Source: Candidatus Bathyarchaeia archaeon (GTDB taxonomy: Archaea; Thermoproteota; Bathyarchaeia; 40CM-2-53-6). From it: a stretch of DNA of 64,000 bases. Both the position numbers and the translations under genes were made by a program. Shown in pieces: positions 2,752 through 15,037 of the stretch. Where the stretch lies: positions 64,001 to 128,000 of the forward strand of contig JBEKVV010000005.1 of the NCBI GenBank assembly GCA_049513715.1, read 5' to 3'. Under the pieces are notes generated by a model. The model ran no database searches, was not told the origin of the DNA, and saw only the letters and a list, made by a program, of their open reading frames with translations. Positions within the stretch are counted from its first letter, which is position 1. Each line of letters begins with the position of its first letter.

Positions 2752-4155
2752 TTGAGGGAGCTGGAAGAGTACAGAACGAAGATTCGTGAAACTGACCGAC
2801 AAATGCTCTCCCTAATCCAAGAAAGGTTATCACTAGGCGATAAATTGGCGGCAGTGAAGCACGCGAAAAGCCTGCCAATAATTGATGCAACCGCAGAGCA
2901 AGCAGTTCTTGACAACTTAACAGAAACTGCAAAGACCCTTGGACTAACGACTAGTTTCGCACGGCGATTGGGAGAACTCCTAATTGAGGAATCCGTGAGA
3001 GTCCAGGATGAAGGAAAACCGAAGCAATCGAAAGACCAATTGATGAAGGAAATTTTCGAACTCATACAGAAACTGTTAGCCCAGGGTCAACGTGTCACAC
3101 GCTTTGAGATTGGAGAACCGAACTTTCCTCCGTCAACACAAATTGTACGCGCTCTGACGGATACTTTCCGCAAGAAGAAGATTGTTGGATACGGACCCGC
3201 TGCTGGTCTCCCGGAGCTGCGGAAGGCTCTGGCCGATGAACTAAGCGCCCAGCACAATTTCACAATCGACCCCGACCAGATCGTCGTAACACCGGGTGGG
3301 AGATTTGCCATATTCGCCGCCGTCACAAGTTTCGTCTCTCCCTTAGAACGCGTGGCCATTCCGCAGCCGGCTTGGCCAGCATATGAGGAATGCGTCGACT
3401 TCGCAAGGGGTCGCACAATTCCGATTAACACAACACTCGAAGACAGCTGGGAGGTTGACCTGGGAAGGCTGGAAGACGAGCTGAGGAAAGGCGTCAAATT
3501 ACTCATCCTGAACACGCCCAACAACCCTACAGGCAAGATCATACGTCAGAAAAAATTCAGGGAAATCGTAGACCTAGCAAAGAGGTATGGCACGTTGGTG
3601 CTCTCCGATGAGGTGTATGAGAGGTACGTTCACAAGAAGAGTCCAAGCATCCTAGAGAGCGGATACGAAAACTTCGTGTATATCAACAGCTTCTCCAAGC
3701 AATTCAGTCTAACAGGGTGGAGAATCGCATACCTGGTAACCACGAAACAAGCTGCTCTGAGAGTCCGCCGCGTGATTCAAACAGCAATAACCTGCGTACC
3801 CGAATTCACACAAAGAGCTGCCCTCGTTGCAATAACAAAAGGCCGTAGAGAAGCCCAACGGCAAGTCAACGATATTTTGAAGAAAGTAGACTTCACCTGC
3901 CGGGAACTGAGCAAAATCGACGTTTCCTTCTATAAGCCCGAAGGGGCTTTCTACGTCTTCCCTAAGGTTAACAGATCGAACTTTGATTCAGTCAGATTCG
4001 CAAGGGAACTTCTAGAGAAACATCATGTTAGCATAAGCCCGGGCCAGGCCTTCGGAGACTACCCAGAATTCTTCAGACTTGCGGTCTCCTTGCCCAAAGC
4101 CCAGATCCCCAGTGCCATCAAAGCCATCGGCAGGGCGATAGATGCTTGGTCGTAG
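2752..4155 (+). CDS. chorismate mutase (AroQ) - class I/II PLP aminotransferase fusion
   Basis: N-terminal LEEYRTKIRETDRQMLSLIQER...VK AroQ pattern; C-terminal NTPNNPTG, SDEVY, SFSKQFSLTGWRI. Confidence 0.85.
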   Translation: MRELEEYRTKIRETDRQMLSLIQERLSLGDKLAAVKHAKSLPIIDATAEQAVLDNLTETAKTLGLTTSFARRLGELLIEESVRVQDEGKPKQSKDQLMKEIFELIQKLLAQGQRVTRFEIGEPNFPPSTQIVRALTDTFRKKKIVGYGPAAGLPELRKALADELSAQHNFTIDPDQIVVTPGGRFAIFAAVTSFVSPLERVAIPQPAWPAYEECVDFARGRTIPINTTLEDSWEVDLGRLEDELRKGVKLLILNTPNNPTGKIIRQKKFREIVDLAKRYGTLVLSDEVYERYVHKKSPSILESGYENFVYINSFSKQFSLTGWRIAYLVTTKQAALRVRRVIQTAITCVPEFTQRAALVAITKGRREAQRQVNDILKKVDFTCRELSKIDVSFYKPEGAFYVFPKVNRSNFDSVRFARELLEKHHVSISPGQAFGDYPEFFRLAVSLPKAQIPSAIKAIGRAIDAWS

Positions 4156-5027
4156 CGACCGTCATCGGTGGAGCGGGACGAATGGGCGCATGGTTCGCCA
4201 ACTTCCTAAAGAAAAACGGGTACAGAGTCATCATACAAGACAAGAACTCCACCGCTGCTAGGGCACTCGCCAGAAAGGAAGGCTACCAATTCATCAAATC
4301 ACAGAATCAGGCAATCTCATTGGGCCAAATAATCGTACTAGCCACACCCACGAATGCAACATTGTCCTTGCTAAGTCGTACGAGCCTAATGTTCAGTCGG
4401 GAAAAACTTTATGTCGAAATTTCCTCAGTTAAAGAACCAGTCAGGACAACCATTCAACTATTACGCCGAAGGATTGGCATTCTAAGCGTTCATCCGATGT
4501 TCGGCCCAGGGTCTCAGACACTGTCAGGAAAAGCCATGCTCGTTACATCTGAGCCAGCTAATAGTAAAATGGCCGAAGCGCTGTTGAAACTGTTCCGAAA
4601 GAAAGGCGTAATGCTATTCCGGTTTGACCCGGAACGCCATGACCAACTGATTGCGCTGGTTCTGGCCCTACCTCATTTCGTCAACAACATCTTCATGAAT
4701 ACCCTGAAGACAATTGGAGAGAACCCTAACCGCCTTCGTAAAGTAGCGGGCACGACCTTTAGACTGCAGTTGCTCACTGCAGAAGCAATCAGTCAGGAGG
4801 ATACTGAGAACGAGCTTTCAATATTGATCGACACTAAGGAAACCCTGACGGTACTGAGGCTATTCCTCAAACAATGCACTGCAGCGGCTAAGGCTGTCGA
4901 AAAAGGTCAACGCAAACGTTTGCGCGAGACTCTCGTTAATGGACGAAGCTACGTTCAAAGAGACCGGGTGTTCGCAACTGCATATAGACGATTTAATGCA
5001 GCTGTTGAAGCGTCTAGTTCTGTTTGA
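4146..5027 (+). CDS. tyrA: prephenate dehydrogenase
   Basis: GGAGRMG Rossmann motif, EISSVK, HPMFGP, HD...LALPH. Confidence 0.88.
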   Translation: MVVATVIGGAGRMGAWFANFLKKNGYRVIIQDKNSTAARALARKEGYQFIKSQNQAISLGQIIVLATPTNATLSLLSRTSLMFSREKLYVEISSVKEPVRTTIQLLRRRIGILSVHPMFGPGSQTLSGKAMLVTSEPANSKMAEALLKLFRKKGVMLFRFDPERHDQLIALVLALPHFVNNIFMNTLKTIGENPNRLRKVAGTTFRLQLLTAEAISQEDTENELSILIDTKETLTVLRLFLKQCTAAAKAVEKGQRKRLRETLVNGRSYVQRDRVFATAYRRFNAAVEASSSV

Positions 5028-6141
5028 TGATCCTGGATTGTTTCTTGCCCATTACGCGTGGGAGCACACCTGCACGCAGGCAATGGTCCGCAAGCACTAT
5101 TGCCACAGCAGATTCTACCACTGGGACGGCTTTTGGAACAATGCACGGGTCATGGCGCCCAGAAACCTGGACGATCGTGTCTTTCATTTCCTGAAGGTTG
5201 ACAGTTTGCTGTTGCCTAGGGATTGAGGATGGCGGCTTGAACCCTACGTGAACCACAACAGGCATTCCGTTTGATAGACCACCTAGGATTCCTCCGGAGT
5301 TGTTGGTTAGGGTGACGACCTTGCCTTCGTGAACGGTGTACGGGTCGTTATTCTCTGAACCTTTCACGGCAGAGGCCTGAAAACCTAACCCTACCTCGAA
5401 GCCTTTCACTGCGGGTATGCTGAAGGCGATTTTAGCGAGATCTGCGTCTAAGCTGTCAAAGAATGGTTCCCCGATCCCAGGAGGTACACCATCGGCGACA
5501 CATTCTACAACTCCTCCAACGCTATCGCCAGACCTGCGAGCCTGAAGAATCACTTCTCTCATTTTCTCTGCTGTTTCTGGGTCTGCGCAGCGGACTGAGT
5601 TTGCGAACGCGTTCTTCTTTATAATGTCATGGGGCAGTGTCCGGCCCAACTTTACTGTGTGAACTTGAATTGTGTGCGCAAAAACCTCGACTCCAATGGT
5701 GCTCAGTAGCTTCCTGGCTATGGCCCCAGCCATGACGATGGGGACGGTCATTCTACCGCTGGCTTGTCCGCCTCCCCGAAGGTCACTGAAATCACCGTAT
5801 TTTATTCGCATTGGAAAATCCGCATGCCCCGGTCTGGCTACGGACTTAAGTTTCTCATAGTCTTGGGACCTGACATCTTTGTTCAATGTTAACAGGGCTA
5901 CAGGTGCGCCGGTTGTGTGACCCTCGAAGATGCCCGAGAGAATCTGAACTTCGTCCTTTTCTCGCCTAGCTGATGTCATTGCTGGATCTGGTGGAATTCT
6001 TCTGTCCAGCTCTCGTTGAATGTCTTCTGTGTTCAACGAAAGCCCGGCGGGGCAACCGTCGACCACAGTCGCCACTCCGGGGCCATGGCTTTCACCGAAG
6101 ACTGTGACGCAGAATTCCTTTCCGAATGTGCTGTCACCCAT
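5014..6141 (-). CDS. aroC: chorismate synthase
   Basis: FGESHG, RPGHAD, RGGG.SGR.T, GRHDPC. Confidence 0.96.
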   Translation of the reverse strand: MGDSTFGKEFCVTVFGESHGPGVATVVDGCPAGLSLNTEDIQRELDRRIPPDPAMTSARREKDEVQILSGIFEGHTTGAPVALLTLNKDVRSQDYEKLKSVARPGHADFPMRIKYGDFSDLRGGGQASGRMTVPIVMAGAIARKLLSTIGVEVFAHTIQVHTVKLGRTLPHDIIKKNAFANSVRCADPETAEKMREVILQARRSGDSVGGVVECVADGVPPGIGEPFFDSLDADLAKIAFSIPAVKGFEVGLGFQASAVKGSENNDPYTVHEGKVVTLTNNSGGILGGLSNGMPVVVHVGFKPPSSIPRQQQTVNLQEMKDTIVQVSGRHDPCIVPKAVPVVESAVAIVLADHCLRAGVLPRVMGKKQSRIIKQN

Positions 6142-7402
6142 TCACTTCAACTCCCAATGCACGCATGTCATCGAAGAAGGTTGGGTATGATTTGCTTACG
6201 CATTCAGCGCCTTGAATTTCAACTCTGCCATCTGCGCCCAGGGCAGCAACTGTGAGCGCCATTGCAATTCTGTGGTCACCATGCGACTGAACAACTCCTC
6301 CTCTCAACGAGGCGGGACCATGAATGCGAAATCCATCCTCTGTCTCTGTGACGTTTGCGCCCAATGCCACTAATTCATCGGAAATACTGGTCAATCGATC
6401 AGACTCTTTGAATCGCAACCTTGAGGCCCCGCAGATCGTTGTTTCCCCATCAGCGTAGCATCCAAGAACTGCCGCCACAGGCCCCAAGTCTGGAGAGTCA
6501 TGAATATCAATTCTAGCGGCCTTCAGACCCACGCCTTCGACCAATACCCCATCATCAACGAGCCTGACGGCTGCCCCCATTTGAGACAGAAGCCCAAGAA
6601 CAACGCCGTCCGGTTCATGGCTAGGTGACGCAAGGCCTCGAACTACAACGCGTGAATTCGTTATAGCTGCGGCGGAGAGTGGGAACGCAGCCGAGGAGTA
6701 ATCTCCCGAAATCGAATGCTCAGCCGAAACGTACCTCTCATTCGGAGTAACTTCAAAAAATGACATCTCACCATCGGTTCTAGCGTGAACCCCATGTTTT
6801 TTCATGGCATCCATTGTGAGCGAGACATATCCTCTTGATTCCAAACGCGTTGTCAAATCCAATCGTAAACCCTTCTTCATGAGAGGCCCGGCGAGGATTA
6901 GGCCTGAGATGAACTGGGAACTGACATCCCCCCGAACAGAAACAGAACCCCCCTCTGGCACTTCACCATCCAATACAACCGAATCATCGTTTACGGTGAG
7001 CTTCACTCCGACTTGTTCCATTGCTGACGCCAAGGGTTGCAAAGGCCTTTTCAGGAGATTACATTTCGCTCTCAACGCCACCCTTCTGCCCGTAAGGGAT
7101 ACTATTGGAATTAGGAAACGCAGGGTAACACCTGATTCACCGCATTGAATTTCCTCTTGCGGTGGATTCGGGAAACCTTTGCCTTCCACGTTCCAAATCC
7201 TCCCTTGTCGAATTATCTTTGCTCCTAAAGCGGAGATGCATTTAGCGGTCGCTTCTGTGTCATCACAAGAGAGTGGATTGTCGATCCTTGTAGTGCCTTT
7301 CGAAAGGAGACCAGTGAAAAGTGCGCGGTGAGTTTGCGCTTTTGATGGAGGAGCGGTTATCGTACCCGAGAGTTGGCGCTTTGGAGTTATTGTGACGTTC
7401 AA
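6134..7402 (-). CDS. aroA: 3-phosphoshikimate 1-carboxyvinyltransferase (EPSP synthase)
   Basis: PPSKAQTHR, CGESGVTLR, SSQFISG, LRFKESDR, DHRIAMA. Confidence 0.95.
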   Translation of the reverse strand: MNVTITPKRQLSGTITAPPSKAQTHRALFTGLLSKGTTRIDNPLSCDDTEATAKCISALGAKIIRQGRIWNVEGKGFPNPPQEEIQCGESGVTLRFLIPIVSLTGRRVALRAKCNLLKRPLQPLASAMEQVGVKLTVNDDSVVLDGEVPEGGSVSVRGDVSSQFISGLILAGPLMKKGLRLDLTTRLESRGYVSLTMDAMKKHGVHARTDGEMSFFEVTPNERYVSAEHSISGDYSSAAFPLSAAAITNSRVVVRGLASPSHEPDGVVLGLLSQMGAAVRLVDDGVLVEGVGLKAARIDIHDSPDLGPVAAVLGCYADGETTICGASRLRFKESDRLTSISDELVALGANVTETEDGFRIHGPASLRGGVVQSHGDHRIAMALTVAALGADGRVEIQGAECVSKSYPTFFDDMRALGVEVNG

Positions 7403-8280
7403 TTCATCACCCTCAGCACATGAGCTTTCTCGAAGTTTGGACGAGCGTCAATAGTATATCCCGGAATTAGGTTCCACGAGCGAAGAACGGCCTCAACTTT
7501 CGAGCTTGGAGCAATAGCTACGACTGCGGGCCCTTTCCCGGACAAACCTGCCGCTATGGCCCCTGCCCGAAGTGCCTCTGTGATGGGGCGAGCGCTATAG
7601 CCCAAAGCTTCACAGTATAGCAGTCCGTTCAATGTCAGCGAAAACCAATGGTTGCCTTTCAAGGCTTCTCGGTGGGCCGTTTGGACGAATCGCCTTATCC
7701 TCCTGAACTCGGTCGGGTCAATGTCCCTTGTGTACTTCTTAGAATTTGGGATCTGCACTAGTGCGTGCAATCGACGGTTGGGATTGAACCGTTTCAGTAC
7801 TCGCCGCCGTTTATTGTCCGTTATTACCCCGCCGCCAAAGTAGCAGGCGCACGCATCATCGAACGCTCCAGTAAGAGTAACCCCTGCTTGAAGGCTGGCG
7901 TCGACCGCAAGCCTCACCGTATCTAGGTCACCAGTTTTCTTATTCAGAGCTCTGATTGTGGCCAAAGCCACGGCGTTGCTTGCAGCACTACTGCTCTTCA
8001 AACCGACAGCAACAGGTATGTTCGATCGGGTTTCCACGAATGCTCCAAATTGATGATGGACTCTGAACTTTCGGAAGACACGACGAACGGTGGTTTCAAT
8101 TAGGGTTGTGTCCTCATCAGGATGAGTCAAGCTGCGTCCTTTTATTACCCCTACTTCGCTGCTCAGTTCAACACGAGCCTTTGTCCAGAGAGCTATGCCT
8201 AGGGCTGCGCCTCTTCCTGTTGCCATGGCATTGACTATGGTGACAGCCCCATGGCTCACGGCCTCAGCTACTCTTAGCAT
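7399..8280 (-). CDS. aroK: archaeal (GHMP-type) shikimate kinase
   Basis: GAVTIVNAMATG, PVAVGLKSSSA, TGAFDD, GLSGKGP. Confidence 0.92.
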   Translation of the reverse strand: MLRVAEAVSHGAVTIVNAMATGRGAALGIALWTKARVELSSEVGVIKGRSLTHPDEDTTLIETTVRRVFRKFRVHHQFGAFVETRSNIPVAVGLKSSSAASNAVALATIRALNKKTGDLDTVRLAVDASLQAGVTLTGAFDDACACYFGGGVITDNKRRRVLKRFNPNRRLHALVQIPNSKKYTRDIDPTEFRRIRRFVQTAHREALKGNHWFSLTLNGLLYCEALGYSARPITEALRAGAIAAGLSGKGPAVVAIAPSSKVEAVLRSWNLIPGYTIDARPNFEKAHVLRVMN

Positions 8281-9169
8281 CTGTCACCGCCATCACATTT
8301 TGAGCAATTGCGCCTCGCATTTCCGACATTGGTGCCTTCCTTCCCGTCCACAACTCAAAAGAAGCTGCACCTTGACTCACTAGCATGTCAAGACCGTTGA
8401 TCGTTTGTGCGCCCGCCGATTCAGCAGTTCTGAGGAGCTTGGTTTGAATTGGCTTGTAGACAATGTCCAGGACCCATTGCCCGGCACTAATTGAGCCTTC
8501 ATGGACGGGCGGATTGTTTCTTCCATCCATACCCATGGAAGAAGCGTTTATGATTACATCGGATCCTTTCACCAAGAGCTGTAGTTTAGGATTCGAAATT
8601 GCAGTATGGGAGATGTTGACCGGGAATTTCTTGTGTAATTGATTCTGCAGACGCGTGGCCTTTGTGAGGGTTCTATTTGCGAGCAAGATCGTTCTGACAC
8701 GTGACGCCATCGCGAAAGCGATAGCCTTACCAGCGCCCCCAGCGCCGAACAAGAGAACCGACTTTCCCTCGAGTATTGCACCAGCCCCCCTGAATGCGTT
8801 TACCGCACCGATTCCATCCGTATTGTAGCCAAGCAACGAACCATTTCGGTTTACGACCGTGTTTACTGAACCGATCTCAGCCGCCGTGCGGTCTAACTTG
8901 TCTAGATATCTCACCACCCTGAGCTTGTAAGGTGACGTAACGTTGAACCCCTTCACACCCACATCGCGAAGACCCTCGACCGCAGATCCGAGGGTGGATT
9001 GTTTCACTCGAAATGGCACGTAAACAGCATTCATGCCGATCGACCGGAACGCGGCGTTTTGAACCAGAGGGCTCAGCGAATGATCCACAGGATCTCCGAT
9101 AATGGCGTAGACCGCGGTCTTCCCGGAAATCGTTAGGTTACTGTACTCCAAGGCTCTGCCACGCGTCAC
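8264..9169 (-). CDS. aroE: shikimate dehydrogenase
   Basis: HSLSP, GFNVTSPYK, GYNTDG, GAGGA; true start may be slightly downstream. Confidence 0.94.
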   Translation of the reverse strand: MTRGRALEYSNLTISGKTAVYAIIGDPVDHSLSPLVQNAAFRSIGMNAVYVPFRVKQSTLGSAVEGLRDVGVKGFNVTSPYKLRVVRYLDKLDRTAAEIGSVNTVVNRNGSLLGYNTDGIGAVNAFRGAGAILEGKSVLLFGAGGAGKAIAFAMASRVRTILLANRTLTKATRLQNQLHKKFPVNISHTAISNPKLQLLVKGSDVIINASSMGMDGRNNPPVHEGSISAGQWVLDIVYKPIQTKLLRTAESAGAQTINGLDMLVSQGAASFELWTGRKAPMSEMRGAIAQNVMAVTDAKSS

Positions 9170-9800
9170 GAAGCCTGTCTATGCTCAGTTGTCCATCCGC
9201 CGTTGCGGAATCATCGGTGAGGGCAGCGAAGGTAAATTCTGCGCCGAAGAGTGGGGACAGAACCCTGGACGGCACACCGATAGAGCCCATGGCGAAGGAA
9301 ACGAGTTTCGTGTTTGCTGATTTGCTTTCAAGAAATCCAAGGACAGTTAGGTTGTCACGAGGGTGTCGTGCGGTCGTTACAATTTTGAAAAGATCACCAC
9401 GGCTCTTCCGCTCAGACATCAATATTCCCTGCAAATCGCTCAGCGTTGGCGTGCCAAAATAGTCGTGAAAAGAGATGATTACTTTCGACCCGCAGTCATG
9501 AGCCTGCGGGACTAAGGTGCTAGTTGAAGGATATGCCGCATCAATGTCGACGTACTCGAAGCCACTCGCAGCGGCGGTGAGAAGCACTTTCTCCTTTTCT
9601 ATGCTCTCTCTGTTTGACTTGTCGGTAGCAATTGCCGGAAACGGTTTCACCTTTCCAATTCTCTCAACGACATCAGCATCCCGTACTGAATCTAAGCGGA
9701 ACTCAACCAAGTCTGGGTTCTTTTCAGAGATTCGTTCTATTAGTTGCTCGACATTGTCCGCGTCATCTAAAACGACGGACAGACAGACTCGGCATTTCAA
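9138..9800 (-). CDS. aroD: type I 3-dehydroquinate dehydratase
   Basis: VEFRLD, IISFHDYFGTP, FAMG...SR. Confidence 0.9.
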   Translation of the reverse strand: MKCRVCLSVVLDDADNVEQLIERISEKNPDLVEFRLDSVRDADVVERIGKVKPFPAIATDKSNRESIEKEKVLLTAAASGFEYVDIDAAYPSTSTLVPQAHDCGSKVIISFHDYFGTPTLSDLQGILMSERKSRGDLFKIVTTARHPRDNLTVLGFLESKSANTKLVSFAMGSIGVPSRVLSPLFGAEFTFAALTDDSATADGQLSIDRLRDAWQSLGVQ

Positions 9801-10855
9801 CGTTCAATCACCATTTCATCTGCCACTAATGTGCCGAAATGACGGCCACCACTTTCTATCCGGACCAGAACCTCGTCGTCCGGTTTCAGTTCCGATACGG
9901 ATTTCGAGCTTCCATCAGACATCAACCGAACGGTCTCAGCGTTCTGAACAATCAGAGAGAAGCTGTGCCCACTTGATTCCGTCTGTATGACCATCATAGG
10001 CCTTCTTTCGATTTTGACCCTTCCAACGTGGCCCGTTCTTACTACGCCATTTCTGTTTGCAATTAGGACTTCATCGCCCGCCTTCAACTCGGACAGGTAT
10101 CGCGTTCTGTGGCCTGGTGTAAGTACGTACGAGGAGACTGGCCCCGCGTTCACTCTAAACGGCCTGGGGTCGACATGTGGGTTTCTGTGAACCTCCGCCT
10201 CGACTAGGAAAAGACCGGCGGATTGAGAACCTACAAGCATCCCTTCGCCGGGGTCCATCAGTTCGCATGTGTCGACGCAGACCCTTGTGCCCAGCCCGAT
10301 TGGCTTGACAGAGACCACTTTGACCTTGTTTAGCACAACCGGTTCTTCGATTTGCTTTACGAGGCGTTCCATTTCTTCTATTTCAGTTGACGTTTGTGGC
10401 GCGATGACTACGCCGTCCACGCCAAGCTCCAGTGTTTGCAGTGCAATCTTCGCTTCACTTTGGTCAGATGTGTCTGCGATTACCTCAGCTTTACCTCGCG
10501 TTTGGGCAATGAGATTCTCTAGTGGAATGATTTTCCAATCAGGACACCGAACTATTAGGTAGCGGACGCCTTTGCCAGCAAGCTGCAAGGCTATTTTCTC
10601 CGCCGCACTGTCTTTGACGGTGATTTCCACGGCCGCTTCTTTTGGAACCTGTTTGTCGAGCAGTTCATCACTTGAGAATAGTTTGATTTCTGAATCACCA
10701 TCTCTTGCGGCGGTTCTTAGTTTGAGGTTTGATACGAGCGGAAGATCTTGCTGGTCGAGCATGGCAACCGTGCAACGGCCCTGAGCAGCTTTGAGAAGCT
10801 CGTGTTTCTGTTCAATCGGAATGCTGGGGTCGAGCCTTAGCCAGAGCTGCTTCAT
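9797..10855 (-). CDS. 3-dehydroquinate synthase II (AroB')
   Basis: WKIIPLENLIA, RVCVDT, RPFRVNAG, QNAETVRL, GRHFG. Confidence 0.93.
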   Translation of the reverse strand: MKQLWLRLDPSIPIEQKHELLKAAQGRCTVAMLDQQDLPLVSNLKLRTAARDGDSEIKLFSSDELLDKQVPKEAAVEITVKDSAAEKIALQLAGKGVRYLIVRCPDWKIIPLENLIAQTRGKAEVIADTSDQSEAKIALQTLELGVDGVVIAPQTSTEIEEMERLVKQIEEPVVLNKVKVVSVKPIGLGTRVCVDTCELMDPGEGMLVGSQSAGLFLVEAEVHRNPHVDPRPFRVNAGPVSSYVLTPGHRTRYLSELKAGDEVLIANRNGVVRTGHVGRVKIERRPMMVIQTESSGHSFSLIVQNAETVRLMSDGSSKSVSELKPDDEVLVRIESGGRHFGTLVADEMVIER

Positions 10856-11643
10856 AGCGCGGACTCCAACATTTTCATCGCTTCTTTAGCGTTCGCACCA
10901 TCATGCACTATTGCCGCGAGAGCTTTGCTCATTGCTTCGGGGTTCTTATGTTGGAAGACGTTCCGCCCGAACGACAGCCCAGCAGAGCCCGCCTTTATAG
11001 AACCCTCCGCGAGCTCGAATACCTCAGAGTCGTTCTTCATGCGTGCCCCACCCGCGACAACTATCGGAACGGGGCACCCTCGAAGTACCTTGCGAAAACT
11101 CTCCACATCACCCGTGTAGACTGTCTTCACTATGTCTGCTCCTAATTCGGCGCCTATCCTTGCGGCGTGCGCAACCTCTTCGACCCCATTCTCGTCTTTT
11201 ATGTTTGGGCCTCTGGGATACATCATGGCAAGTAGAGGAATACCGTAGGAATCACATTCCTCCGACAGGCCGCCAAGGAATTCGAGCATTTTGTCTTCCT
11301 CCTCGGCCCCAATATTGAGGTGAGCAGAAACAGCATCCGCACCCAACCTGATGGCCTCCTCAACGGTGCAAACTCCAACCTTCAGGTTGGGTTTTGATCC
11401 GAGTTTCGTCGAAGCGGAAACGTGCACGATTAGCCCGGCATTGTGAGTGTCGACTCTCTTAGCGATGCCCTTGTGTACAAGCACGGCGTCCGCACCGCCC
11501 TTCACGACGAGTTTTACGGTTTCTTGCATGTTCTCTAGCCCCTGAACTGGACCGACCGTTATGCCATGGTCCATCGCAATGATGAAGGTCCTAGAGTCGC
11601 TTCTGACGAATTTTCGTAGCCGCCTAGTTTTTCCAGATTCCAT
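10852..11643 (-). CDS. 2-amino-3,7-dideoxy-D-threo-hept-6-ulosonate synthase (AroA', DhnA-type aldolase)
   Basis: [28 protein letters not shown]; adjacent to DHQ synthase II. Confidence 0.9.
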
Positions 11644-11659
11644 TTTTCCACTTCACCCT

Positions 11660-12691
11660 TCACAAGTAACCTTGAGATTTCATCGATTCAGCGATTAGAA
11701 TCGCGCAGCCAGCAGCACCGCGAATCGTGTTATGGCCGAGCGCCACGTACTTGACGCCATCAAACACGGTGTCCTTCCGTATCCTACCAACAACAACTGC
11801 CATGCCTCGTCCTTCAGCCCTGTCGAACCGCGGTTGTGGGCGATCCGGCTCCTGCCTGACTACGACCGGTTTCTCAGGAGCTGAGGGCAACCTGAGTTTC
11901 TGGGGCTCTGCCGCAAAATTCCCCATTGACTCAGCTATTTCTTCAGGGCTGGCCTGTTTCTCAGTCTCGACAAATACTGCCTCTGTATGACCGTCAATAA
12001 CCGGAACACGATGACAACTTGCCGAAACCTTGAAGCCAGCGGATTTGCCCGCCTCCCCGAGGATCTTCTTAGTTTCACGCTCAACCTTCCCCTCCTCGTC
12101 CTTGATGAAGGGGACGATGTTGTCGATTATGTCAAGAGACGCGACGCCTGGGTATCCCGCCCCGGACACTGCTTGCATGGATGACATGACGACGTTTCGG
12201 ATCCCGTAGCAGACATGAATTGGTTTCAGCGAGAGTGTGAGGACGGCAGTGGTGCAGTTCGGATTTGTGATTATCGCGCCGTCCCATTTCCGTTCCCGTC
12301 TTTGTTGGTCAATCAGTGAAAGATGATCAAAGTTGGCTTCTGGGTTCATGAGCGGAACGTCAATATCCATTCTGTGTGCGGCGGCATTGCTTACGACCGC
12401 GTAACCTGCTCGCGCAAAACTTTCTTCTACTTTCAGGGCTTCGTCAGACGGTAGGGCCGAGAACACCACGTCGGCATCAACCTCTTTAGGATCTGTCGGC
12501 TGGACTGTTAGCTCGCCAATTTTCTGTTTCAGCTGGGTTTCCATTCGCCAGTTGACGGCATCTTTGTAGACCGTGCCGGCAGATCTATCGGACCCGGTCA
12601 GTGAGGCGATTTCGAACCATGAATGGTCGTTCAGTAATTGGACAAATCGTTGCCCAACTAGCCCAGTTGCGCCCAGTATTGCTGCTTTCAC
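11660..12691 (-). CDS. asd: aspartate-semialdehyde dehydrogenase
   Basis: LGATGLVGQ, NPNC, QAVSGAG, HNTIRGAAG. Confidence 0.95.
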   Translation of the reverse strand: MKAAILGATGLVGQRFVQLLNDHSWFEIASLTGSDRSAGTVYKDAVNWRMETQLKQKIGELTVQPTDPKEVDADVVFSALPSDEALKVEESFARAGYAVVSNAAAHRMDIDVPLMNPEANFDHLSLIDQQRRERKWDGAIITNPNCTTAVLTLSLKPIHVCYGIRNVVMSSMQAVSGAGYPGVASLDIIDNIVPFIKDEEGKVERETKKILGEAGKSAGFKVSASCHRVPVIDGHTEAVFVETEKQASPEEIAESMGNFAAEPQKLRLPSAPEKPVVVRQEPDRPQPRFDRAEGRGMAVVVGRIRKDTVFDGVKYVALGHNTIRGAAGCAILIAESMKSQGYL

Positions 12692-12692
12692 C

Positions 12693-14033
12693 TTAAAGTT
12701 CCCCTTTCACAACTTGTTTAATCAAAGTCATTGCTTGCTCTTTCTCGTCCCACGAAACAAAGACTAAGATGCTTGAGGCCAAGGTCAGTAATCCGAAGAT
12801 GTTGATTCCGTTTTCTTGGAGGCGTTGAGACATCTTCCCAATTATTCCAGGCGTATCTTCCAGCCCGACGCCTTTCACCTTCAAGAACGCCAAATCGAGT
12901 TGAACGGCCATGGCGAGGCTTTCGCCGTGGCCTGTTACGACATCGTGGATATAGGTGAGCAATGAGTTGGATGGGCTTTGAGGTACGTAAAAGATTACGG
13001 AATCGAAATTCGCGGATAAACCGTTGAGTGTCGAATGGTTTCGGATTTCTTTCACAAGGTTGGCTAGTATGGATGGGTTTTCCGAGATGCCTTTGCCAGC
13101 AATTGTCACTGCCATAGATTGTGTGTTGCTTGCGAAGATTACCTCAATCTCGCTTGAGATTCCGCCAGTAATGATCGTTCCGTCGCCTTCTAAGTCGTCT
13201 TTCCTATGATTAATCACTCTGACCGGGATGTTCGGGTCCTTGTATCTCAATGCTTTTCTATGGATGAATTTCGTTCCCGAGTCAGCTAGCCCAATCAGGG
13301 TTCTAACATCAATTCTGTCAAGTTTCTTTGCGTTTGGGATGAGCTTAGGGTCGGCTGACAGTATGCCGTCCGCGTCCGTCACCAGGACGACTTCATCTGC
13401 CCCGATAGCCTTGGCTATTATGAAGGCGGTCGTGTCGCTTCCCCCGCGGCCGATTGTACTTACCTTGCCAGCGGTCGAACGTCCAATGAAACCCGCAATC
13501 ACGGGAACGGTTCCCCAATCCAGAAGTGGGATAACATGCTCGCGAACCTTCTGCAAGCATAGTTCGAGGATTGGGTTCGCGTCTGAGAACTGGTCGTCGG
13601 TTAAGATTGGCCAATCTGGGTCGGATGGATCGAAGTACCTTGTGTCAAGGCCTTCGGCTTTCAAGGCTGTTGTGAAAACCCTGACGCTTGTCCGTTCACC
13701 CATCGCAATGACATCGTCAAGGTCTGTCTTGTCCGGCTCCTTTCCCGCGTCATGATTGATCAATCCGATTAACTGGTCAGTCATCTTGCCCATGGCTGAG
13801 ACTACGACCACAAGCCTCGTGCCTTTCCTGCATTCCTTTGCAATCAGTTGAGCTGCTTTCGTGATTTTGTCCTTATTTGCTAAGCTTGAGCCGCCGAACT
13901 TGACAACCAGTCGCCTATTCTTTTGGATTTCAACGGCTACTGGTTTCTGCTCACTAAGTGTCTGAAGCGTAGTGTTTGCAGAAAGGTTAGTTTGTGGAGA
14001 GCGGGGCGCATGAGAGCCAGTAGTGATCACCAT
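12693..14033 (-). CDS. lysC: aspartate kinase with C-terminal ACT domains (start uncertain: 14060/14033 or reached by frameshift)
   Basis: VVKFGGSS, VVSAMG, GRGGSD, TDADG...DP; the only canonical in-frame starts lie inside the leader ORF. Confidence 0.9.
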   Translation of the reverse strand: MVITTGSHAPRSPQTNLSANTTLQTLSEQKPVAVEIQKNRRLVVKFGGSSLANKDKITKAAQLIAKECRKGTRLVVVVSAMGKMTDQLIGLINHDAGKEPDKTDLDDVIAMGERTSVRVFTTALKAEGLDTRYFDPSDPDWPILTDDQFSDANPILELCLQKVREHVIPLLDWGTVPVIAGFIGRSTAGKVSTIGRGGSDTTAFIIAKAIGADEVVLVTDADGILSADPKLIPNAKKLDRIDVRTLIGLADSGTKFIHRKALRYKDPNIPVRVINHRKDDLEGDGTIITGGISSEIEVIFASNTQSMAVTIAGKGISENPSILANLVKEIRNHSTLNGLSANFDSVIFYVPQSPSNSLLTYIHDVVTGHGESLAMAVQLDLAFLKVKGVGLEDTPGIIGKMSQRLQENGINIFGLLTLASSILVFVSWDEKEQAMTLIKQVVKGEL

Positions 14034-14073
14034 AAATGTGACCACCGAAAATGTAACCACTCATTTGTTCCAT
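13987..14073 (-). CDS. putative 28-aa aromatic-rich leader peptide MEQMSGYIFGGHIYGDHYWLSCAPLSTN
   Basis: ATG 14073 to TAA 13987, preceded by SD-like GGGGTG and a TTTTAAG box; 3 Tyr, 1 Phe, 1 Trp clustered; heads the aro operon. Confidence 0.65.
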   Translation of the reverse strand: MEQMSGYIFGGHIYGDHYWLSCAPLSTN

Positions 14074-14113
14074 TCTTACACCCCACGGTGTTCCCCGCAT
14101 CCCGCAAGGGCGG

Positions 14114-14121
14114 CTTAAAAG
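14114..14121 (-). promoter_or_regulatory. putative TATA box of the lysC-asd-aro operon
   Basis: CTTTTAAG on minus strand about 40 nt upstream of the leader ATG. Confidence 0.5.
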
Positions 14122-14290
14122 AGTTCCTCAAGCAGTCAACATAGCTGTACATCGAAAACGGTTACGCATAACTATGTTCATCTCAAGTCTGGATCTATGA
14201 GTGTGTACAAATCGTTAATTTTGTTCATGATATTTCGAGGCTTCGCAGTTTCGTTCAAACGGAGACAAACCGCTGGTAGTTGATTATGGT

Positions 14291-14989
14291 CTACATCCCA
14301 TCGTATAATCGCTCTGCCAAGAACGGTGGCAAGCATGCTTGGGTGATCTTACTGGTCACTGAATCTACATCATACTTCACTCGAATGATGTCGAATGAAA
14401 AATGGCCATCAAGAATATTGAGCATTCCAAAGCTTGCGCGTGGATCACTATCTCTAGGCTGGCCTACACTTCCAGGGTTCGCCAACATCTGACCTTCAAA
14501 TGTGTAAACCATGGGCATATGGGTGTGTCCGAGTAAGACTAGATTTGCGCCTCCCTCCAGAATCAATTCACGCGCTTGCGAGCTGGATATGCCAGGAAAA
14601 ATGTACTCCGTAAGAGGGTCTCTGGGGCTGCCGTGAAACAACGCCATCTTAGTGCCCTCCATCTCCAGCTTCGCGGAGGGAAGCAATCCTCTCAGGTAGT
14701 CTAGGTTTTCTTGACTGATCTGACTCCGTGTCCAAATAATCGCATCAGCTGCATGGTGCGTAAACCCGTCCACATCACCTGTGACAGTGGCATAATCATG
14801 GTTTCCCGTGAGAACGACAGAAGGATTTTGACCCTGAAGGTAGCTGATGACTTCGTTCGGTTGAGGACCGTATCCGACAATGTCACCCAAGCAGAGAAGG
14901 GCATCGTGCTTGGGGAGTTGTGACGTGACTGCCTGCAAGGCGTCAAGGTTTGAGTGAATGTCTGATATGACCGCAATTCTCAAGCCCAA
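14291..14989 (-). CDS. calcineurin-like metallophosphoesterase (YfcE/MJ0912-like)
   Basis: SDIHSN, LGDIVGYG, GNHD, HGSP, GHTH, NPGSVGQPRD. Confidence 0.9.
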   Translation of the reverse strand: MGLRIAVISDIHSNLDALQAVTSQLPKHDALLCLGDIVGYGPQPNEVISYLQGQNPSVVLTGNHDYATVTGDVDGFTHHAADAIIWTRSQISQENLDYLRGLLPSAKLEMEGTKMALFHGSPRDPLTEYIFPGISSSQARELILEGGANLVLLGHTHMPMVYTFEGQMLANPGSVGQPRDSDPRASFGMLNILDGHFSFDIIRVKYDVDSVTSKITQACLPPFLAERLYDGM

Positions 14990-15037
14990 ACCTCACTACA
15001 CCTCCTAGCAGAACTGAGAAATGATTGGCGGTTGAGG

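Follow-up and report, generated by a model that had tools for sequence, protein, structure and literature searches.

Several described systems come close to the arrangement reported here. In prfB, the gene for RF2, a short zero-frame ORF is fused to a functional +1 frame under negative feedback, an internal Shine-Dalgarno (SD) sequence lies 3 nt 5′ of the shift, and, during the wait at the A site, the P-site tRNA moves from NUU to UUU. Where an SD stimulates a +1 shift, it lies 3 nt from the shift site, and in RF2 the slip is from CUU to UUU (PMC5009743). The pheL/trpL/hisL attenuators sense the end product through the codons of a short leader placed before a biosynthetic operon; at pheL, a +1 shift at CCC_UGA has been judged incidental (PMC3082878). 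A slow A site favours the +1 slip in hungry-codon shifting, at the CUU_AGG sites of Ty1, ABP140 and EST3 and in antizyme, so that the frameshift can be sensor and effector together (PMC5009743). The ketolide-induced ermCL provides a case in which the shifted ribosome crosses a spacer and switches on the downstream gene (PMC5009743). For starvation-driven shifting to a functional product, the available part of a 2016 review states that ‘no examples are known’ (PMC5009743). As for archaea, fucA1 was the only cellular recoding case in a 2021 list (PMC8211752), and control of aromatic operons is represented by TrpY and Tar (TK0271), which are DNA-binding regulators (PMC6737238).

We analysed a window of 64,000 nucleotides from a Candidatus Bathyarchaeia archaeon (the source genome), in which a short leader overlaps the aspartokinase gene lysC in another frame. 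The leader carries a motif, called cassette below, that would work like prfB without belonging to the prfB type. Its A-site codon is a sense codon of the end product and not UGA, the gene encodes aspartokinase and not RF2, the signal would be aminoacyl-tRNA supply, the P codon is any NUU, and one to two sites stand in tandem; moreover, the system is archaeal, controls a biosynthetic operon and has a coupling version at three loci. It also appears to fall outside the attenuators, with one or two sensing codons instead of a run, apparently no terminator, an enzyme gene without a conserved start of its own and a fixed phase. Ty1-type sites differ in depending on a permanently rare tRNA, and antizyme in sensing polyamines at a stop codon. 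The coupling-type loci resemble ermCL, which however has an antibiotic trigger, is bacterial and makes no enzyme fusion, while fucA1 shares with lysC only archaeal frameshifting, its shift being −1 at a heptamer. SD-stimulated slipping, hungry codons and leader sensing are thus each known; their combination was not found in print within the literature searched. In the open-access literature, which leaves subscription papers largely outside coverage, we found no paper on such a frameshift system, and the available part of PMC3711429 mentions neither trpE nor aspartokinase.

The leader and the aspartokinase frame in the source genome

The original prediction described, on the minus strand, a TTTTAAG box, an SD-like GGGGTG and a 28-codon ORF built around three 15-nt repeats. 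All of these are present in the sequence, the ORF with the peptide given (Table 1). The box occupies positions 14120-14114, a comparable promoter element stands at the equivalent position in the upstream DNA of close relatives (group g1, see below), and transcription would start at about 14090.

Table 1. Features of the lysC leader and operon (window positions)
Feature	Position	Strand	Basis or remark
BRE/TATA-like promoter GAGGAACTC-TTTTAAG	14114..14129	-	sequence
Leader SD GGGGTG	14079..14084	-	pairs with source-genome 16S 3′ end GATCACCTCCT; −8.7 kcal/mol
Leader ORF, 28 codons	13987..14073	-	sequence
Putative shift cassette 1 (Phe): weak SD-like AGTGGT, 3-nt spacer, ATT (P site), TTC (A site)	14047..14061	-	
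Putative shift cassette 2 (Tyr): internal SD GGTGGT, 3-nt spacer, ATT (P site), TAT (A site)	14032..14046	-	
Third repeat GGTGAT CAC TAC TGG, no slippery codon	14017..14031	-	
ATG and GTG in aspartokinase frame, 13 and 16 nt after internal SD	14028..14033	-	rival internal-initiation site
Linker, S/T/R/Q-rich, stop-free, poorly conserved, about 40 codons, aspartokinase frame	13914..14033	-	sequence composition
Aspartokinase (lysC), stop-to-stop frame	12693..14060	-	NCBIfam TIGR00657 above cut-off
asd	11660..12691	-	begins 1 nt past lysC stop
ADH synthase, DHQ synthase II, aroD, aroE, archaeal aroK, aroA, aroC	5014..11643	-	abutting/overlapping; route to chorismate

The slippery NTT codon occurs only in units 1 and 2, the two repeats in which a slip-prone ATT had been noticed. 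Unit 1, with its AGTGGT, lies outside the strict motif and was excluded from the scored units discussed below; its counterpart in the related family f2 reads GGTGRY-NNN-NTT-TTC. Unit 2 is the most conserved, with an equivalent in all 46 cassette loci, and its anti-SD duplex reaches −10.2 kcal/mol. A second leader ATG, at 14064, stands four codons 5′ of the first slippery codon, a spacing also seen in g2, f2 and trpE leaders.

As originally described, the aspartokinase frame is +1 relative to the leader and open through the repeats: it runs for 455 codons from 14060 to the stop at 12693, and just 5′ of this stretch it is closed by a TGA that overlaps the second ATG of the leader. It holds no ATG, GTG or TTG between the leader stop and the conserved VVKFGG, where the near-cognates ATC 13928 and CTG 13910 are the only candidates. 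This too agrees with the prediction, which had overlooked the starts of that frame inside the leader (GTG 14060, GTG 14045, ATG 14033 and GTG 14030).

The leader does head an aromatic operon, with lysC and asd followed by the genes leading to chorismate. Aspartate semialdehyde enters the archaeal ADH route to dehydroquinate, which accounts for lysC and asd at the head of an aro operon. The DHQ synthase II and aroD matches were below curated cut-offs. The operon holds the sole aspartokinase found in the source genome (one strong match), and prephenate dehydratase is encoded elsewhere. Anthranilate synthase (trpE), homoserine dehydrogenase, HisG and an HMGL-like enzyme were not found in this 99.4%-complete genome.

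Across 11500-15000, DNA contigs of two runs (X1 and X17), both of them possibly the source of this DNA, showed 0 differences and 0 gaps. An RNA run, present as contigs, contributed three short pieces within lysC and none across the leader, and is uninformative on start or level. The strict motif has 38 occurrences on both strands of the source genome, or 0.002 per 330 nt. Two scans of this genome for further cassettes gave 22 and 5 candidate sites; the full design was found at the lysC locus only, the remaining sites being judged by eye to be due to chance. A tRNA scan of the genome was unreliable because of introns.

The original prediction had also proposed folding the RNA for alternative hairpins. 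Both the MFE and the centroid structures pair 14046-14038 with 14030-14022, a 9-bp hairpin between units 2 and 3; that the third repeat serves as its 3′ arm is suggestive only. Across the 18 g1 loci, 94% of cells are paired, with covariation not above shuffles; the f2 leader alignment gave 5 weak pairs, likewise with covariation not above shuffles. The leader as a whole folds no better than shuffled sequences (z −0.94), and long-range pairing between the leader SD and the leader tail, though good by eye, reached p < 0.05 in only 3 of the 46 loci. Rfam models returned one chance match over 13800-14400 (E 3.7; 11 bits, threshold 45) and no riboswitch, T-box or leader RNA.

Conservation of the cassette, its phase and the linker

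Orthologues of lysC were searched in 401 genomes of the class and a strong match was found in 223. Upstream DNA was read for all matches of family f1 (18 loci of group g1, including the source genome, and 15 of g2), all 13 of family f2 and 52 of the 177 others. The motif GGTGRN-NNN-NTT-TWY, where TWY is a Phe or Tyr codon and GGTGRN lies 3 nt 5′ of NTT, occurs at 46/46 lysC loci of f1 and f2 and at 0/52 of the other loci, and every one of the 46 leaders has an upstream start codon in the motif frame. The comparison of relatives advised in the original prediction therefore recovers both the short aromatic-codon ORF and the +1 phase, and by this pattern of conservation the leader ORF is under selection.

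Three layouts were distinguished. In type B (43 loci) there is no conserved lysC start, and in 42 of these loci lysC lies in the +1 frame, the distance from cassette to core ranging over 115-175 nt in steps of three. The lone out-of-phase locus, L012, is one base apart from its near-twin L013, a difference that may reflect error or decay. In type C (L023, L103 and L104, all f2) the cassette is kept although the +1 frame does not lead into lysC; that frame extends for 57, 41 and 59 codons and ends 2 nt before, or just inside, an SD-led start belonging to lysC. These three loci, which keep the cassette without the lysC fusion, were counted for the frameshift reading. Type A comprises 49 of the 52 other loci. 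The leader holds at least 5 Phe/Tyr/Trp codons among its last 12, against a background of 0.6%, and a hairpin is usually present; lysC has a start of its own, relative to which the leader is randomly phased (17/16/16). These leaders look attenuator-like and Phe/Tyr-rich, much closer to the pheL/trpL/hisL family.

To describe the slippery position without presupposing NTT, we counted the codon three places after GGTGR that precedes Phe/Tyr. It was CTT in 23 units, GTT in 21, ATT in 15 and TTT in 2, hence NTT in 61/61. These codons specify four amino acids, and each time re-pairing on TTT is possible; T-ending codons make up 17-33% of their families in the source genome. The following A-site codon was TAC (34), TTC (15) or TAT (12) in the same 61 units. 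Since TAC and TTC are common codons in the source genome (71-74%), they would be slow only under amino-acid shortage. The spacer codon, in the E site, varies over 16 forms, and on this ground a −2 slip was rejected. GGTGAT and GGTGGT both match the anti-SD of the source 16S end GATCACCTCCT, perfectly or with one wobble (−7.4 to −10.8 kcal/mol). The cassette GGTG stands 9 nt before the P codon; at initiation sites of the source genome, GGTG peaks 10-13 nt before ATG.

The stretch between cassette and core was examined at the 42 in-phase loci, L012 and type C being omitted. The lysC frame is free of stops in 42/42, where shuffling of the part after the leader stop would leave 14.3 such loci; of the remaining two frames, one is open over that stretch in 23/42 loci and one in 10/42. 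Amino-acid identity in the linker is 0.25, 0.48 and 0.21 for g1, g2 and f2, as against 0.72, 0.82 and 0.78 in the core. By these measures, the reading frame of the linker is kept and its peptide is not.

The original prediction had the leader sensing Phe, Tyr and Trp. Conservation of the Phe/Tyr codons agrees with the first two, g2 leaders having a single such sensing codon. Trp is probably not sensed at the source lysC locus, because the third unit is not slippery, no trpE was found in the genome and the Trp codon is missing from all 13 f2 leaders. A Trp codon does follow the cassette in 15/18 g1 and 15/15 g2 leaders. Relatives carry a separate Trp cassette on trpE.

A quick tree (INDEPENDENCE) was made from 66 lysC rows, omitting 7 cassette loci and 25 others. 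A branch with support 87 separates all its cassette loci, together with one cassette-less f3 row, from the rest. The lysC cassettes, in this unrooted tree, are thus probably of single origin, so that the 46 loci stand for about four deep lineages and not for 46 independent cases. The case rests mainly on conservation across deep branches and on the recurrence of the design, with a different amino acid, at trpE.

The same design at trpE

The f1 and f2 genomes yielded 30 trpE loci, 28 of them with the 5′ end in view. All 28 show a start codon followed by RGG-NNN-NNN-NTT-TGG, with trpE in the +1 frame. Forty more loci from across the class, drawn from 58 matches, comprised 36 with the cassette and 4 with a start of their own, giving an NTT-TGG cassette in 64/68 Bathyarchaeia trpE loci. 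Counted again without presupposing NTT, the codon before Trp was CTT (32), GTT (19), ATT (7) or TTT (5), that is NTT in 63/63; one further locus, L329, was not parsed in this count, although its cassette is visible on reading. The trpE frame has no ATG, GTG or TTG before the conserved LES motif in 27/63 loci and is closed by a stop within four codons upstream in 24/63. In 12/63 the trpE frame has a canonical start together with an SD-like site, which counts against frameshifting there. Most trpE cassettes have a weaker internal SD (−4.7 to −9.9 kcal/mol), placed one base nearer. A palindrome, possibly a repressor-binding site, is also found in the trpE promoters.

Outside the class, 20 of 56 trpE loci were read. 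Among these other Thermoproteota, NTT-TGG occurs in matching phase in 12/20, and 8/20 are without the design; 7 of the 12 fit the fixed pattern, and 5, in which the leader is longer, were recognised by eye. Four of the 12, from family f38, bear amoA and have GGTGGN as in the lysC cassette. This ammonia-oxidising group has cultured members, and the trpE version is therefore testable now.

The cassette is not general to amino-acid operons. None was seen in relatives at hisG (2/12 unparsed), argG (8/23 unparsed), hom, thrB or ilvD, a result short of absence for the his, arg and ilv/leu operons, whose first genes were not always in view. In five genomes from outside Bathyarchaeia, the Phe/Tyr pattern gave 11 matches, close to the 7 of a reversed control, and none at an aromatic gene. 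A threonine version of the cassette was looked for at thrB and lysC of these five genomes and was not found.

A putative frameshift sensor and its alternatives

The original prediction held that attenuation, re-initiation or +1 frameshifting might control the operon and that sequence could not resolve the mechanism. Comparison of sequences resolves it to a large extent: the motif, its spacing, the phase, the open linker, the lack of a conserved start and the exchange of the A-site codon for Trp on trpE are all found there. Of the three mechanisms, these features strongly favour +1 frameshifting at a hungry codon; attenuation and re-initiation are unsupported at the source locus. The lysC leader system is real and conserved and is most likely an amino-acid sensor based on frameshifting, and we consider it very probable that a regulatory +1 programmed frameshift, sensing charged tRNA-Phe and tRNA-Tyr, controls lysC.

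What we infer beyond these features, namely the slip itself, its rise under starvation, the role of the SD and the downstream effect, would proceed as follows. Ribosomes would initiate on the leader ORF and, once NUU occupies the P site and the A site presents a Phe or Tyr codon, GGUGRU 3 nt upstream would be paired with the anti-SD of the 16S rRNA. Should aromatic aminoacyl-tRNA arrive quickly, reading would stay in frame and stop at 13987, with no aspartokinase made. Should it be scarce, the P-site tRNA would re-pair on the overlapping UUU and the ribosome would continue in the +1 frame across the linker and on into aspartokinase; by arithmetic, the fusion would have about 459 residues from either shift site. 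The aspartokinase gene thus seems to lack a start of its own and to be made only upon a slip. The switch could gate the whole operon by translational coupling or polarity, because asd and the aro genes abut each other. The sign of such control fits, a shortage of end product raising enzyme synthesis. For Ile and Val tRNAs, re-pairing on UUU involves a first-position mismatch, which counts against the mechanism.

The alternative closest to hand is internal initiation, where GGUG would be a plain SD, or the source of a GTG, aspartokinase would begin at an ATG or GTG inside the leader, and leader translation would only modulate access. We regard this as unlikely, though it has points in its favour. 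Each GGTG holds a lysC-frame GTG and, in g1 including the source genome, the internal SD lies 13-16 nt before a lysC-frame ATG or GTG, 13 nt being within the initiation range; at the source locus the duplex before ATG 14033 reaches −11.9 kcal/mol, and the GTG at 16 nt is kept in 17/17 in-phase g1 loci. The ATG, however, is kept in only 8/17 and replaced by ACG or another codon in 9/17, g2 has no canonical start with a strong SD after the cassette (a weak ATA/ATG, −5.4 kcal/mol), nor do the 10 f2 loci, and an ATG, GTG or TTG past the last cassette, present in 33/43 loci, is absent altogether in 10/43. Nor would internal initiation explain NTT in 61/61 and 63/63 units or the trpE loci that are startless and closed by a stop. 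A ribosome stalled on the aromatic codon would be expected to cover the start, giving the wrong sign, and the hairpin predicted in g1 hides the starts. At RF2, internal initiation is presented as an incidental by-product (PMC3082878). A basal leak by this route is nevertheless likely in g1.

The frameshift could also be real and yet deaf to amino-acid supply, damping expression at a set ratio. A strong internal SD can drive shifting alone and the trpE palindrome could supply regulation through a repressor, but we find such a fixed ratio very unlikely: at both genes the A-site codon is that of a pathway product, at lysC it is for the most part a codon slow only when its amino acid is short, and sister lineages have Phe/Tyr-rich leaders at the equivalent place. 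Highly improbable, in our view, is a non-canonical start or re-initiation near VVKFGG (CTG 13910 or ATC 13928), with the leader serving attenuation or coupling and the phase incidental. Most other Bathyarchaeia do use a leader with a separate lysC start, and some f2 genomes appear, by eye, to start ilvD at CTG. Near the core, however, there is no conserved near-cognate start with an SD, a fixed phase and an open linker of 40-60 codons would be needless, and phase is random where lysC has its own start. That transcriptional slippage, editing or an assembly error restores the frame is scarcely credible, with T runs of just 3-5 nt, two DNA assemblies identical base for base and the phase preserved in 42/43 genomes.

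Regulatory frameshifting at lysC may be one instance of a wider system. It is probable, with rather less assurance than for lysC itself, that +1-frameshift amino-acid sensing is a lineage-wide archaeal trait, built on a modular cassette (SD, 3 nt, NUU and the codon of the product) at trpE and the aro operon. In much of Thermoproteota, including ammonia oxidisers, the cassette would control trpE by way of Trp, and in one branch of Bathyarchaeia a Phe/Tyr cassette would have been placed before the aro operon, replacing an attenuator-like leader; its action would be by fusion or by coupling.

If true, this would give cells a new means of detecting a shortage of amino acids, a control other than attenuation, T-box, riboswitch or transcription factor. 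It would provide the first natural productive use of hungry-codon frameshifting, answering the question left open by the main recoding review, and would add +1 regulatory frameshifting to the cellular genes of archaea. Archaeal ribosomes would then use their anti-SD during elongation, and standard gene finding would miscall the starts of lysC and trpE in these genomes.

The trpE cassette and upstream palindromes

The 5′ ends of trpE were examined at loci L158–L186, L305–L344 and L348–L364. The cassette, consisting of an internal Shine-Dalgarno (SD) sequence, 3 nt, an NTT codon in the P site and the product codon in the A site, with the downstream gene in the +1 frame, was found there with a Trp codon in 64/68 Bathyarchaeia loci. 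This Trp version also occurs in 12 of the 20 loci from other Thermoproteota, four of these genomes being amoA-bearing.

Most trpE promoters (L159–L186, L305–L344) carry a GTAC-n-GTAC palindrome directly 5′, upstream of the TATA box, which we take to resemble the TrpY TRP box. The window has a single copy of TGTACA 5′ of its lysC promoter, where the motif is not conserved.

Coordinates of individual features in the window and in its genome, G000
Feature	Position	Strand	Remark
Aminotransferase with N-terminal extension and prephenate dehydrogenase-like gene	window 2752-5027	+	convergent with aroC
Trp codon of lysC leader	window 14017-14019		after Tyr unit
TGTACA	window 14146-14151		single copy
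Candidate tRNA-Pyl (CTA)	G000:C2:419817-419913		ARAGORN prediction

Gene content of G000 and neighbouring observations

TrpE, HisG, an HMGL-like enzyme, homoserine dehydrogenase and ArgG were all searched for in the G000 genome and not found, although TrpE is present in 18/22 congeners. G000 is apparently a multiple auxotroph that retains the Phe/Tyr route. A candidate tRNA-Pyl was also predicted, by a tRNA scan that is unreliable for this genome. In the window, the aminotransferase and prephenate dehydrogenase-like gene overlap the end of aroC, and the N-terminal extension of the former presumably resembles chorismate mutase.

In family f2, ilvD was seen by eye to lack an ATG and to carry a CTG 9 nt after GAGG (L247, L260, L263–L265, L267). 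This CTG looks like a candidate non-canonical start.

Leaders of lysC

After the Tyr unit (the second shift cassette), a Trp codon preceded by no slippery codon is present in lysC leaders of both f1 genera, g1, that of the window (15/18), and g2 (15/15). Several g2 genomes carry trpE on the same strand, ~10 kb downstream of lysC.

At L023, L103 and L104, the shifted frame stops at the own start of lysC and is not fused to it; judging from sequence, these loci may represent a coupling version of the lysC cassette.

Among the 52 Bathyarchaeia loci outside f1 and f2, all devoid of the cassette, the DNA upstream of lysC encodes in 49 a leader rich in Phe/Tyr codons, usually with a hairpin after it that adjoins the SD of lysC (loci listed: L021, L022, L024, L026–L028, L080–L082, L084, L105–L144). 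Leader and hairpin together constitute an attenuator-like, class-wide archaeal system.
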